From: Candidatus Omnitrophota bacterium
Lineage (GTDB): Bacteria > Omnitrophota > Gorgyraeia > JABMRN01 > RBG-13-46-9
Assembly: GCA_013203315.1 (NCBI GenBank)
Contig: JABMQJ010000028.1
Span: 1-16,598 of the forward strand
Length of the DNA: 16,598 nucleotides
Reading direction: 5' to 3'
The notes under the pieces are model-generated. The model did not search any database, was not told where the DNA came from, and saw only the letters and a program-made list of their open reading frames with translations. Position numbers and translations under genes: made by a program. Below are positions 1 to 4,437 of this stretch, piece by piece (the first letter of the stretch is position 1; every line of letters starts with the position of its first letter).

Positions 1-470
1 CAGGCCCAAGGCCCATAACCCCTGGCATAGGCGAGGGAGGAAGACATCCGATAACCCCTGGCATAGGCGAGGGAGGAAGGCATCCGAGACCAAAGCCAAG
101 GCCAATAGACCCGGTAGTCTTAAAATACGCCCCAGGTCCAATACCGAAGCCGATAGATCCACCAATGGTACTGAAATACGCCCCAGGCCCAATACCGAAG
201 CCGATAAAACCACCGATTGCCCTGAAATACGCCCCAGGCCCAATACCGGGGAACACGGTAAGCGTTACAATGAAAGTGACAAAAACCAATGACGAAACCG
301 TGAATAAGCTTGTACTGCGGAAAATAGCAGAATTACGAAACAAAATACGCGAAGCCTTTAACGGACCAACGGAAAAAATGGGAAGAAACATAAATGTATC
401 AGTGAGTAAAGGCCCGGAATTAAAAAAAGTAACGTTAATGGTAGGCGAAGACATTAGCAATCCCAAGTAA
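1..470 (+). CDS. Proline-rich tandem-repeat protein, 5'-truncated at the window edge; C-terminal ~75 aa resemble a TonB/TolA-type ββαβ domain. The ORF-track start at 165 is an internal Met.
   Basis: The frame of the tracked ORF 165..470 is open with no stop from nt 3 to 470. Translation reads GPRPITPGIGEGGRHPITPGIGEGGRHPRPKPRPIDPVVLKYAPGPIPKPIDPPMVLKYAPGPIPKPIKPPIALKYAPGPIPGNTVSVTMKV... Repeat periods are 36 and 51 nt, both multiples of 3. Differences between copies are mostly synonymous (tta/ctg Leu, ggt/ggc, cca/ccg, aga/agg). The ATG at 165 corresponds to ATT (Ile) in the next repeat copy. The tail GNTVSVTMKVTKTNDETVNKLVL-RKIAELRNKIREAF-GRNINVSVSKG has β-β-α-β topology like TonB_C, preceded by a PIPKPIKPP rigid linker. 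The TonB call is by eye only. Confidence 0.55.
   Translation, partial: GPRPITPGIGEGGRHPITPGIGEGGRHPRPKPRPIDPVVLKYAPGPIPKPIDPPMVLKYAPGPIPKPIKPPIALKYAPGPIPGNTVSVTMKVTKTNDETVNKLVLRKIAELRNKIREAFNGPTEKMGRNINVSVSKGPELKKVTLMVGEDISNPK
15..86 (+). repeat. Two perfect-phase 36-nt tandem coding repeats (12 aa, ITPGIGEGGRHP) differing by one synonymous a/g
   Basis: ataacccctggcataggcgagggaggaag[a/g]catccg at 15-50 and 51-86. Confidence 0.8.
120..254 (+). repeat. About 2.7 copies of a 51-nt tandem coding repeat (17 aa, [V/A]LKYAPGPIPKPI[D/K]PP[M/I])
   Basis: Units at 120-170, 171-221 and 222-~254; motif aaatacgccccagg[t/c]ccaataccgaagccgata. Confidence 0.8.
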
Positions 471-493
471 AAAAGGGATAAATAACGTAATTA

Positions 494-533
494 AAGGGTA
501 TCTTCTTCAAATAAGGAGATACCCTTTTCTTTT
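494..533 (+). terminator. Rho-independent terminator after the Pro-rich protein gene
   Basis: aagggtatct(tctt)/(aagg)agataccctt stem of 10-14 bp with G·U, loop caaat, then ttttctttt. Confidence 0.8.
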
Positions 534-596: not shown

Positions 597-1730
597 ATGG
601 ATCCAAGAGAAGCGGAAAGAAGAAAATGGGTGAAAACATTAAAACCAGAAACCATAGTGTGGGAAATAACCTTAGCCTGCAATATGAAATGTATACATTG
701 CGGTTCAAGCGCAGGCCCTTTAAGAAAACGGCCGGATGAATTAAGCACGAAAGAAGCTATAGGCCTTATCAGACAATTAAAAGAAATAGGAACCGAAAGA
801 ATTGTCCTGTCAGGAGGAGAACCTTTCTTAAGAAAAGATTGGGAAGTTTTGGCGAAGGAAGTAGCCGCGTTAGATATGATACCGTCTTTTATTAGTAATG
901 GTTTTTTGTTAGATGAAAAAAAAGCAGAAAAAATAAAGGCTTTGAACAGACCGGATGCCCATGTGGGCGTGAGCGTTGACGGAGACGAGAAAACCCACGA
1001 TTATATAAGACAGACCAAAGGCTCTTTTAAAAAAGCGACCAGCGCACTCGAAATACTGAAAGAGAAGGGAATCTTTGCTTCAGCCATAACGCAGGTGAAT
1101 ATGCTTAATTTCAAGTTATTGCCGAAGATAAGAGACCATGTATTTAAACGTGGAATTTATGTTTGGCAGATTCAGTTGGCAACGCCATGGGGAAGGTTAG
1201 CCAAAAATCCCAAACTTCTCTTGACACCAAAGAATTACCTAAAATTAGTAAAATTTATAGCAGAACAACGGAAAATATTCGGAGAGAAAATTGTAGGCGC
1301 TGACGACATCGGATACTATACAGAATTAGAACAACAAATAAGGCCTCAGAAAGAATGGGGCGGATGTCACGCCGGGTTAAGGGCGCTTGGCTTAACAAGC
1401 AATGGTAATGTAACCGGCTGTCTGTCGCTGCAGGAACCGCAGTTTATCGAAGGCAATATCCGCAAGCGAAAATTAAAAGATATCTGGTATGACCCTAACC
1501 TTTTCTCCTATAATAGAAATTTTAAAGAGGAATGCATGGAAGGATTTTGCAAGGAGTGCCCCTACCGGCTGAAATGCCGCGGCGGATGCAAGAATACGGC
1601 ATATGCATTTACGGGTTCTCTCTATAATAATTGTTACTGCGTTTTTAGAGTCATGCGCGGCAAAAAAGCACCGTCGATGAAAAAGATGCTGGGGAATAGA
1701 ACGACCGGTGCCGGACAGTATCACCCATAG
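597..1730 (+). CDS. Radical SAM / SPASM-domain enzyme, anSME/QhpD-like architecture with no N-terminal RRE
   Basis: CNMKCIHC (CxxxCxxC, Cys28/32/35, nt 678-701). GGEPFL glycine-rich SAM motif. C-terminal Cys cluster WGGC...TGC...EEC-x4-C-x2-C-x5-C-x3-C...NNCYC, consistent with SPASM two-auxiliary-cluster domains. The CxxxCxxC lies only 28 aa from the N-terminus, so there is no room for an RRE. Confidence 0.85.
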   Translation: MDPREAERRKWVKTLKPETIVWEITLACNMKCIHCGSSAGPLRKRPDELSTKEAIGLIRQLKEIGTERIVLSGGEPFLRKDWEVLAKEVAALDMIPSFISNGFLLDEKKAEKIKALNRPDAHVGVSVDGDEKTHDYIRQTKGSFKKATSALEILKEKGIFASAITQVNMLNFKLLPKIRDHVFKRGIYVWQIQLATPWGRLAKNPKLLLTPKNYLKLVKFIAEQRKIFGEKIVGADDIGYYTELEQQIRPQKEWGGCHAGLRALGLTSNGNVTGCLSLQEPQFIEGNIRKRKLKDIWYDPNLFSYNRNFKEECMEGFCKECPYRLKCRGGCKNTAYAFTGSLYNNCYCVFRVMRGKKAPSMKKMLGNRTTGAGQYHP

Positions 1731-1739
1731 GAGGTAATA

Positions 1740-2693
1740 ATGGGGAAAATTACCATAGGCATTGTCGGCGCGGAAAATGAAGCGCACTCTGCCCATATGA
1801 AAAACATCCTTCAGGAAAAAGGAATAGATACACTAATTATCGATACACTCAAGTATCCCGAAAGCGTAACATTAAGCATTACAGACAATGATGTAATATA
1901 CAACGGAAAGTCCCTACGCAATATAAATGTCTTTTATATCAGGTCCCTATTCTATAGTTTACCGCCTTATGACCTGGAACAGAGGAGGCGTGAGACAGAG
2001 GTTGACCTTGACAATTGGTATGTAGAATATATGGCAGAAAGGGAAAGGCAGTCCCATCTTACCTCGTGGTTATGGATTGAGGCCGGAAAAGGAAAGCATA
2101 TCATAAACCCTGTCGATTCTTTCGATACCCATTATCTTAAGCCCTATCAAATATATCTGCTGAGAAAAAATGGTATTCCGATACCAAAAACGTTAGTAAC
2201 TAATGACGAAGAAAAACTAATAGAATTTGTAAAAAAAACAAAAAGATTAATATATAAACCGGTAGCAGGGGGTGCGAAATGTAAAGAGTTATTTAAAAAG
2301 GACCTAACCAGAGAAAGATTGGAGCGACTTCGAAACTCACCTGTTTTGTTTCAAGAGCTGATAGAGGGGGATAATATAAGAGTATATGTTATAAACAATA
2401 AAATAGTATCAAGCAATGTGATTAAATCGGATGCTTTGGATTATAGGGGATCAGAGAAAGAGATATTTCCAATTTCTTTACCCGATAAAGTAAAAAAGAG
2501 GTGTATTAAAGCGGTAAAGATATGTAAAATGAAATACAGCGGTATAGATTTGAGAAGAAAATCTTCAGGCGAGTACGTATTTTTAGAATGCAATCCATCC
2601 CCGATGTTTTTGGGGATGGTTGAGGCGGCAGGCGACCCGATAGACGAATATTTTGCCGATTACCTTATTAAATTAGCGAAAAGCAGGATATGA
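1740..2693 (+). CDS. ATP-grasp ligase, RimK / glutathione-synthetase-like
   Basis: Strong RBS taggaggtaataATG. Motifs IYKPVAGGAKCKEL, LFQELIEGDNIRVYVI, GIDLRRKSSGEYVFLECNPSPMF are typical of the RimK-like ATP-grasp fold. Starts 9 nt after the rSAM stop. Confidence 0.8.
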   Translation: MGKITIGIVGAENEAHSAHMKNILQEKGIDTLIIDTLKYPESVTLSITDNDVIYNGKSLRNINVFYIRSLFYSLPPYDLEQRRRETEVDLDNWYVEYMAERERQSHLTSWLWIEAGKGKHIINPVDSFDTHYLKPYQIYLLRKNGIPIPKTLVTNDEEKLIEFVKKTKRLIYKPVAGGAKCKELFKKDLTRERLERLRNSPVLFQELIEGDNIRVYVINNKIVSSNVIKSDALDYRGSEKEIFPISLPDKVKKRCIKAVKICKMKYSGIDLRRKSSGEYVFLECNPSPMFLGMVEAAGDPIDEYFADYLIKLAKSRI

Positions 2694-3649
2694 GTAACGC
2701 GGAATGCCAGGATTTTGCAGATAGGAAATTCCACAATATCTTCCATTTCGAATACGGCCTTCTGGACGATAGCACTTTCTGGATATCACCCGGCAATAAC
2801 ACCCTCTTGAGAATTGATAAATTCACATTGAATATATTACTGGATTTGAACACTGGAAAATCTATGTGCGAGGCGGCAAAAAAATATAATGTAGAGTTAA
2901 AAGAAGTAACGGATATTTATAATAGACTTGAGCAAAACGGATTTGTAGTAGCAGCAAACTTCGGAAAAATAAAACGTTCAAACCCAAAAGAAGACATAGA
3001 TATCGCCCCGTATATTTTGATTTTTTTAGCATTGATAATCGGACAACTTTTTTACTTCACTCATATGGCAAAGACAGTCCTGATGAATAAAACAATCGAA
3101 GGCATAGTAGTCGGCGCTATTGCCATAGCAGCTATTTTTTTTCACGAACTCGGCCATTATTTAGTCTCTTGGAAATATACAAAAGTAAAACCTAAAATGA
3201 AATTCGCTATTTTAAAAATATTTCCGGTAATCTATGTCGACACAAACCTCGCGTGGCGGCTTCCGAAGAACGAAAGGCTTCTTGTAAGTTTAAGCGGTGT
3301 GTTTTTTGATTTGATTATAAATACGATTGTGGTAATATTAGTATTGGGAAAAGGCTCTTTGGAATATTTCGTTACGCCATTTTTGTTGACCCAGTATATA
3401 AGGATTTCTATTTTAATTAACCCTGTTTTTAAGGGCGACGGATATTGGATATTGTCAGACCTGCTGGGTGCCGTAAATATGGAAAGGAAAGGTATTGAAG
3501 AATTAAAAAGGGGTAAAATAAACTTCTTTTCCCTGTACGGAGTTATATCTTTAATCTTTTCTATATTAGCTGCATTCGGCTTGATATGGTTTATATATAA
3601 TTTGGCAAGACCGTTTATCGTAAATTTTGTGTTACCGTTTTTTAGATAA
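2690..3649 (+). CDS. Polytopic membrane HExxH metalloprotease (S2P/M50-like) with an N-terminal cytoplasmic PqqD-like RRE domain
   Basis: Overlaps the ATP-grasp stop by ATGA. Residues ~27-88, FWISPGNNTLLRIDKFTLNILLDLNTGKSMCEAAKKYNVELKEVTDIYNRLEQNGFVV, match the PqqD/RRE pattern (LN..g..iw.ll.g..t..ei...l...y.v....v..D....l..L...g.v). HELGH sits in a TM helix (aa 152-156, nt 3143-3157). A second motif INPVFKGDG (aa 243-251) resembles the S2P NxxPxxxLDG zinc-ligand motif. At least 6 hydrophobic TM segments. Confidence 0.65.
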   Translation: MSNAECQDFADRKFHNIFHFEYGLLDDSTFWISPGNNTLLRIDKFTLNILLDLNTGKSMCEAAKKYNVELKEVTDIYNRLEQNGFVVAANFGKIKRSNPKEDIDIAPYILIFLALIIGQLFYFTHMAKTVLMNKTIEGIVVGAIAIAAIFFHELGHYLVSWKYTKVKPKMKFAILKIFPVIYVDTNLAWRLPKNERLLVSLSGVFFDLIINTIVVILVLGKGSLEYFVTPFLLTQYIRISILINPVFKGDGYWILSDLLGAVNMERKGIEELKRGKINFFSLYGVISLIFSILAAFGLIWFIYNLARPFIVNFVLPFFR

Positions 3650-3663
3650 AGAGGGAGGGTATT

Positions 3664-4437
3664 ATGGAGTTCATGAAATCATTAAATTTCTTGGGATTCG
3701 GCATTTTAATATTTATTGTATTTATTATCGCAGCCGCCATAAGGATAGTAAAGCAGTATGAAAGAGCAATTGTTTTTAGGCTCGGAAAGTTTATCTGTAC
3801 AAAAGGTCCGGGTTTAATCTTTATAATACCTATCATAGATAGGGCCCTAAAAGTAGACATACGAGTAAATTCTATAGACGTGCCAAGACAGGAAACTATA
3901 ACAAAAGATAATGTGTCGGTTATTGTCGATGCCGTAGTATACTACAAAGTAGAGAATCCGGAAAAGGCCATAATAGAAGTCAAGAATTCCATCGAGGCCA
4001 CATTTCTTATAGCACAGACGACCTTGAGAAGCGTAATAGGTCAGACAGAGCTCGATGGGCTTCTATCGCAAAGAGACGAAATCAATAAAAATTTGAGAGA
4101 AATTATCGACAAACATACCACTCCCTGGGGGATAAAGGTAATTACGGTGGAGATAAAAGAATTAGCTTTACCGGAAGAGATGAAGCGTGCCATGGCAAGG
4201 CAGGCAGAGTCTGAGAGAGAAAGAAGAGCAAAGATTATAAACGCCGAAGGCGAATACCAGGCCGCGGAAAAATTACGCCAGGCAGCAGAAATAATGAGCA
4301 AAGAGCCGATCACGGTGCAATTACGTTATCTTCAAACGCTTTCGGAGATTTCTGTCGACAAGAGCTCAACCATAATTTTTCCGGTCCCTATTGATTTAAT
4401 ATCTAATATTTTGAAAAAAGCGGACGAAAAAAAGTAG
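3664..4437 (+). CDS. SPFH / band-7 (stomatin/prohibitin-like) membrane scaffold protein
   Basis: Strong RBS agagggaggg. N-terminal TM helix FLGFGILIFIVFIIAAAI. Core SPFH signature RLGKF...GPGL.FIIP..D....VDIR....DVP.Q...TKDNV.V.VDAVVYYKV, coiled-coil Ala/Glu/Arg-rich C-terminus. Confidence 0.85.
   Translation: MEFMKSLNFLGFGILIFIVFIIAAAIRIVKQYERAIVFRLGKFICTKGPGLIFIIPIIDRALKVDIRVNSIDVPRQETITKDNVSVIVDAVVYYKVENPEKAIIEVKNSIEATFLIAQTTLRSVIGQTELDGLLSQRDEINKNLREIIDKHTTPWGIKVITVEIKELALPEEMKRAMARQAESERERRAKIINAEGEYQAAEKLRQAAEIMSKEPITVQLRYLQTLSEISVDKSSTIIFPVPIDLISNILKKADEKK

Follow-up and report, generated by a model that had tools for sequence, protein, structure and literature searches.

The window, meaning the whole 16,598-nucleotide stretch of DNA that was analysed (contig JABMQJ010000028.1 of a Candidatus Omnitrophota bacterium), begins with a RiPP-like gene cluster in which a precursor gene, two peptide maturase genes, a membrane protease gene and a stomatin gene follow one another on the forward strand:

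3..470, + strand: putative precursor gene, 3' part, recognised from its translation (155 codons; ORF open at the left window edge)
493..527, + strand: hairpin resembling a terminator or attenuator (15-bp stem, then a T-run), downstream of the precursor gene and ahead of the enzyme genes
597..1730, + strand: radical SAM/SPASM peptide maturase (377 aa; Pfam Radical_SAM 2e-24, SPASM 5e-8)
1740..2693, + strand: PsnB-type (group 2 graspetide) ATP-grasp macrocyclase (317 aa; similarity to PDB 7drm-7drp)
2690..3649, + strand: RRE-M50 (site-2-protease-like) fusion protein (319 aa)
2726..2977, + strand: RRE domain of the fusion protein (aa 13-96), with three β-strands, three helices and a short C-terminal strand
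3143..3157, + strand: HELGH zinc-binding/catalytic motif (aa 152-156) within membrane helix 135-164
3419..3442, + strand: NPVFKGDG motif (aa 244-251; S2P NxxPxxxxDG), with D250 the presumed third zinc ligand
3664..4437, + strand: stomatin (SPFH/Band 7) protein with an N-terminal membrane anchor (257 aa; Pfam Band_7 4e-40)

The cluster genes are closely packed, with intergenic distances of 9 and 14 nt and one 4-nt overlap, in which the ATG of the fusion gene overlaps the stop codon of the upstream ATP-grasp gene. The hairpin was recognised solely as a consensus match and may act as a terminator or attenuator. An Rfam scan returned one tRNA only, with no match inside the cluster, and sigma-70 promoter matches were at background (14 found, 14.0 expected). 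The best NCBIfam matches of the radical SAM maturase were nif11-class maturase 3 (4e-77) and the GDL-motif maturase (3e-68), both under cut-off, and among PDB sequences it matched SkfB (7e-16) and PqqE (3e-11). Its CxxxCxxC motif is located at residues 28-35, which leaves no space for an N-terminal RRE of its own, and there is no second RRE in the cluster. The ATP-grasp protein matched PDB entries 7drm-7drp, which we take to be PsnB, over residues 5-310 (E 5.3e-54), and the NCBIfam ATP-grasp ribosomal peptide maturase model at 7e-26.

The fusion gene lies exactly where the earlier note had placed it (2690..3649, + strand, 319 aa) and is a real, conserved gene, not a chance ORF. Twenty-two close homologues were found (20 full-length, 2 partial; E 5e-190 to 6e-50), and residues H152, E153, G155, H156, N244, P245, D250 and G251 are invariant in an alignment of 21 sequences spanning 36-92% identity. 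The AF2 model (mean pLDDT 85) contains strands at residues 20-24, 29-33 and 40-43 and helices at 44-54, 59-65 and 70-82, followed by the membrane helices. Three strands and then three helices bear out the winged-helix RRE fold that had been proposed for the N-terminus, and the stretch quoted as PqqD-like falls within aa 13-96 (nt 2726-2977). This succession is that of the RRE fold, an 80-90 aa winged helix-turn-helix in which a three-stranded antiparallel β-sheet precedes three α-helices, and alignments of RRE proteins to the domain span 71-80 residues and take in the N-terminal three-stranded sheet. The genomic context is also that of an RRE: the radical SAM/SPASM and ATP-grasp genes are directly upstream, the precursor gene comes before them, and this arrangement is kept in related loci. 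With sequence profiles, the PqqD/RRE models (Pfam PF05402, NCBIfam PqqD-type) gave no match to the fusion protein at E<=1, weak PqqD matches were obtained in just 1-2 of 124 distant relatives, and a search of PDB sequences with the RRE alone returned nothing significant.

The remainder of the protein is, as the earlier note had recognised, a multi-TM protease of the M50/S2P type. HELGH is positioned in a predicted TM helix, NPVFKGDG provides the second, NxxPxxxxDG motif, and the model has the S2P core fold. Both histidines, the glutamate and the glycine listed above for the first motif, and the D and G of the second, are unchanged also across the 124 distant relatives. Pfam Peptidase_M50 (PF02163) scored 18.5 bits against a gathering score of 27.2 (E 1.3e-3) and matched 90 of the 124 distant relatives at E<=0.01; among PDB sequences the full-length profile had no significant match, MjS2P appearing only at E 0.6. 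Because Pfam PqqD is silent and Peptidase_M50 falls under its threshold, the domain assignments rest on predicted structure, invariant motifs and sub-threshold NCBIfam matches; support at the sequence level is less strong than the earlier note had suggested. The N-terminal domain comes before TM1, and in the loop that follows the HExGH helix there are 6 K/R and 1 D/E. The AF2 helices and this charge distribution are consistent with a cytoplasmic RRE and, by extension, a HExxH site that would face the same side. With that predicted topology, and with no transporter or exporter gene encoded in the cluster, the proposal that leader removal is coupled to export finds no support here.

The fusion had also been called unusual, a description that does not survive comparison with known systems. 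The daptide class was discovered from 80 RRE-site-2-protease fusions (PMC10028931), and nearly all members examined of a superfamily of 9,398 50%-identity clusters (E<=1e-3) carry an N-terminal extension (124 of 129). The extensions of the distant relatives, taken as a set, are homologous to the N-terminal domain of the window protein (hhalign 96.4%, E 1.2e-9). The daptide protease MpaP/DapP (NF041824; Ren et al. 2023, PMC10028931) has the same architecture, with an RRE at the N-terminus of an intramembrane site-2/M50 protease, and the same function is proposed for it, since it is described as an RRE-dependent intramembrane leader peptidase; daptide leaders carry ELExMEAP, a motif similar to the E[ED]LExR portion of the leader in the present loci. 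NF041824 is the best curated match of the window protein (E 1e-14), and all 124 distant relatives tested match this model. However, the window protein reaches 54.5 bits against an equivalog score of 300, aligns through its protease part only (profile positions 160-299) and, at 319 aa, is shorter than the model of 379 positions. Daptide clusters are described as encoding an aminotransferase, an oxidative decarboxylase, the DUF-RRE protein MpaB and a methyltransferase, and no radical SAM enzyme (PMC10028931); these partner genes and the short Thr-terminated precursors are absent from the window and related loci, and the genes quoted as co-occurring in daptide clusters do not include stomatin. 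Membership of the daptide family was rejected on the score and the absent partner genes.

Membrane M50 metalloproteases, namely epipeptide EpeP/YydH with LiaK (NF058609) and pearlin TglG/TmoG, also act in RiPP maturation (PMC10885120), and EpeP adjoins a radical SAM enzyme, a kind of enzyme that the present cluster also encodes. The window protein matched NF058609 at E 4.4e-14, with 52.8 bits against a cut-off of 225; the model has just 246 positions, a length that could hardly accommodate an RRE. Epipeptide clusters have a YydG-type epimerase and an ABC transporter; the present cluster encodes no ABC transporter, and the best matches of its radical SAM enzyme are SPASM maturases. Epipeptide-family membership was rejected on the score and the lack of an ABC transporter. 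The lasso B1/B2 proteins (TfuB1, TbiB1) also combine an RRE with a leader peptidase, split or fused, but their protease is a soluble transglutaminase-like cysteine protease rather than a membrane zinc protease, and no lasso cyclase is present here. SpoIVFB, RseP and MjS2P have CBS or PDZ accessory domains and cut TM segments of regulators after a site-1 cut, whereas the window protein bears an RRE and presumably acts on a soluble substrate. The window protease probably belongs, with DapP/MpaP and EpeP/YydH, to a RiPP branch of the M50/site-2-protease superfamily.

The precursor gene of the window occupies the position of full-length precursors in loci L005, L008, L012, L016 and L030. The visible protein consists of Pro-rich tandem repeats, two copies of PITPGIGEGGRH and 2.5 copies of VLKYAPGPIPKPIxPP, and then a non-repeat tail; in the gene, TRF delimited a 36-nt unit repeated twice (15-87) and a 51-nt unit repeated 2.5 times (123-248). 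Its visible units read ITPGIGEGG, with one Thr and one Glu, and the motif KY[AG]PGP is common to it and to the precursors of L005, L010 and L030. The leader falls beyond the left window edge, and contigs with an identical protease all break at the same place, as short-read contigs end in the repeats. Twelve recovered precursors have a common leader, [KH][LI]F[IFV]E[EDR]LExR[KQ]ST[SQ]xL[F] (summarised as LFIE[ED]LExRKSTSPL), and unrelated cores; the leader also occurs in the variant IFFERLEKRQSTQTLF. Leader peptides of this type are exemplified by KKLFIEELEERKSTSSLF and, from L017, by MKKKLFIEELEERKSTSSLFVTT. The precursors are 170-310 aa long and contain no hydrophobic segment, which is atypical for RiPPs and for classical S2P substrates alike. 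The leader is kept in loci without the ATP-grasp gene (L005, L010, L030, L019, L042 and L049) and in loci without a radical SAM gene (L017 and L046). Since it is kept whatever the maturases, and the RRE-M50 protease and stomatin are the only other constants, its conservation in the 12 precursors points to the RRE as the putative common reader of the leader.

Plesiocin (PsnA2/PsnB) offers the closest parallel on the precursor side. Besides the clear relationship of the ATP-grasp enzymes, relatives L008, L012, L014, L016, L017 and L046 combine an LFIEDL-type leader with TTxxxxEE core units, and L017 and PsnA2 place Thr, Thr and Glu at the same distances from Leu (+17, +18, +23). The Glu-containing unit is absent from L005 and L010, two of the loci without ATP-grasp. 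A PDB search with a precursor as query did not retrieve the PsnA2 peptide. The plesiocin LFIEDL segment is bound by the ATP-grasp enzyme PsnB itself (bioRxiv 10.1101/2021.03.09.434688), and conservation of the leader is therefore no proof of binding by the RRE. The present loci differ from plesiocin in the added radical SAM/SPASM enzyme, in cores of 170-310 aa with extra Pro-rich repeats, and in that several of them have the leader but no ATP-grasp. Group 2 graspetide clusters are reported to occur together with NHLM/PCAT-type transporters for leader removal (PMC13097080), whereas an RRE-M50 protease and stomatin are found here.

The window stomatin is orthologue-like in its PDB matches, stomatin 9oh9 (5.5e-72) and PH stomatin 3bk6 (1.6e-61), with HflK/C structures as distant relatives. 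The same neighbourhood occurs in ~25 loci from at least five labelled phyla; for these uncultivated lineages Omnitrophota and Elusimicrobiota are the most consistent labels. In every one of these loci that extends far enough the protease and stomatin genes are adjacent, and contigs of sufficient length always encode a precursor that bears the conserved leader, together with one or more peptide maturases, beside the pair; the maturases and core sequences differ from locus to locus. Those that come into question for the platform considered below are a PsnB-type ATP-grasp enzyme, or one to three radical SAM/SPASM enzymes, sometimes stomatin-fused. Sixteen true relatives were recovered in contigs by a hand-made family-specific DNA pattern, and in 8 of 16 genomes stomatin is fused to a radical SAM/SPASM maturase, which places the stomatin SPFH domain in the cytoplasm as well. 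One such natural fusion is encoded at 4279-6216 of L019. L012 and L016 encode a fusion of radical SAM and ATP-grasp enzymes. Stomatin operons classically pair with a membrane protease, as in PH1510/PH1511 and HflKC-FtsH, and the present loci resemble stomatin-NfeD (PH1511/PH1510) and HflK/C-FtsH in that an SPFH scaffold gene adjoins a membrane protease gene; they differ in that the partner is an RRE-bearing M50 protease and the stomatin is often fused to a radical SAM maturase. No description of stomatin paired with an RRE-bearing M50 protease, or fused to a radical SAM maturase, was found in the searchable literature.

We consider it likely that the product of ORF 2690-3649 is the leader peptidase of a RiPP-like cluster, a polytopic zinc metalloprotease with a cytoplasmic N-terminal RRE. 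From the computed predicted folds, invariant motifs, conserved gene order, conserved leader and gene fusions, a model can be drawn of how the leader may be bound and cut, in what order the steps may follow, what stomatin may contribute and what may become of the product. In the cytoplasm, the long leader-bearing, repeat-rich precursor would receive Thr-Glu lactones on its TTxxxGEE-like units from the PsnB-type ATP-grasp enzyme, and the RRE-less radical SAM/SPASM enzyme would also act on its Pro/Tyr-rich repeats. The RRE would bind the leader as an added β-strand and so tether the precursor at the membrane, where the leader-core junction would enter the cytoplasm-facing HExGH...D site and be cut. 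In addition, the RRE may offer the precursor to the radical SAM enzyme in the manner of PqqD, and the neighbouring stomatin probably serves as a scaffold that joins protease and maturases in a single assembly at the membrane. It is plausible that an RRE would bring a peptide with its leader to a membrane protease, and this agrees with the published MpaP model. More tentatively, and with somewhat less than even confidence, the RRE-M50 protease and stomatin may form a fixed leader-reading platform in the membrane (a "stomatin-caged maturation station") for interchangeable maturases and very long hypervariable repeat proteins with one common leader.

The radical SAM enzyme, which lacks an RRE of its own in a cluster with no other, is related to PqqE, which needs PqqD, and these facts would fit an RRE that serves mainly as a PqqD-like chaperone in trans for this enzyme, the fusion just localising the chemistry and the protease finding its substrate without the RRE. 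However, the RRE is kept where no radical SAM gene adjoins the protease (L014, L017, L046 and the P0017 contig), and the N-terminal domain is homologous across the superfamily, including daptide-like proteases whose clusters, as described, have no radical SAM enzyme; as the main role of the RRE this seems unlikely. A chaperone role is compatible with leader removal, our best explanation, as a second job.

The universal adjacency of protease and stomatin, the classical pairing of stomatin operons with membrane proteases and the distant relationship to HflK/C could instead signify a general membrane housekeeping pair (like NfeD/STOPP-stomatin or FtsH-HflK/C) with RiPP genes as mere neighbours and stomatin or damaged membrane proteins as substrate. 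Such a pair would leave the RRE fold without a role, and it is at odds with the leader-bearing precursor and maturase genes beside it, with the radical SAM-stomatin fusions in half of the genomes and with the nearest curated families of the protease, which are RiPP proteases; we regard it as improbable and give it little weight. DNA-binding winged helices do match the N-terminal domain, and on that reading the protein would be a membrane-tethered regulator or an anti-sigma-type site-2 protease, but these matches span the helical part only (43-60 residues) and score lower than the 71-80-residue RRE matches, and the cluster has no gene for a sigma factor, an anti-sigma factor or any other regulator, making this reading extremely improbable. 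The DNA-binding winged helix, the housekeeping pair and daptide or epipeptide membership were each rejected as primary explanation.

Taken together, we conclude that the fusion of a peptide-recognition domain with a membrane-embedded zinc protease is real and that the protein most likely serves a modified-peptide gene cluster as its leader-removing enzyme. An RRE on a membrane protease was the hook to daptides, and in this respect only a divergent member from uncultivated lineages is added; since the fusion architecture has been known from daptide clusters since 2023, the novelty lies in the stomatin scaffold protein that constantly accompanies it. One conserved leader serves unrelated cores and varying maturase sets, a natural case of a leader-guided, modular platform that could be of use in combinatorial RiPP engineering, and substrates that are repeat proteins of 170-310 aa blur the border between RiPPs and modified proteins. 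A true stomatin tied to a specific protease and, by gene fusion, to a radical SAM maturase presents a concrete, testable client relationship. If the tentative platform reading is true, a bacterial stomatin would for the first time have a defined client system, and an SPFH scaffold would be seen to organise a RiPP pathway.

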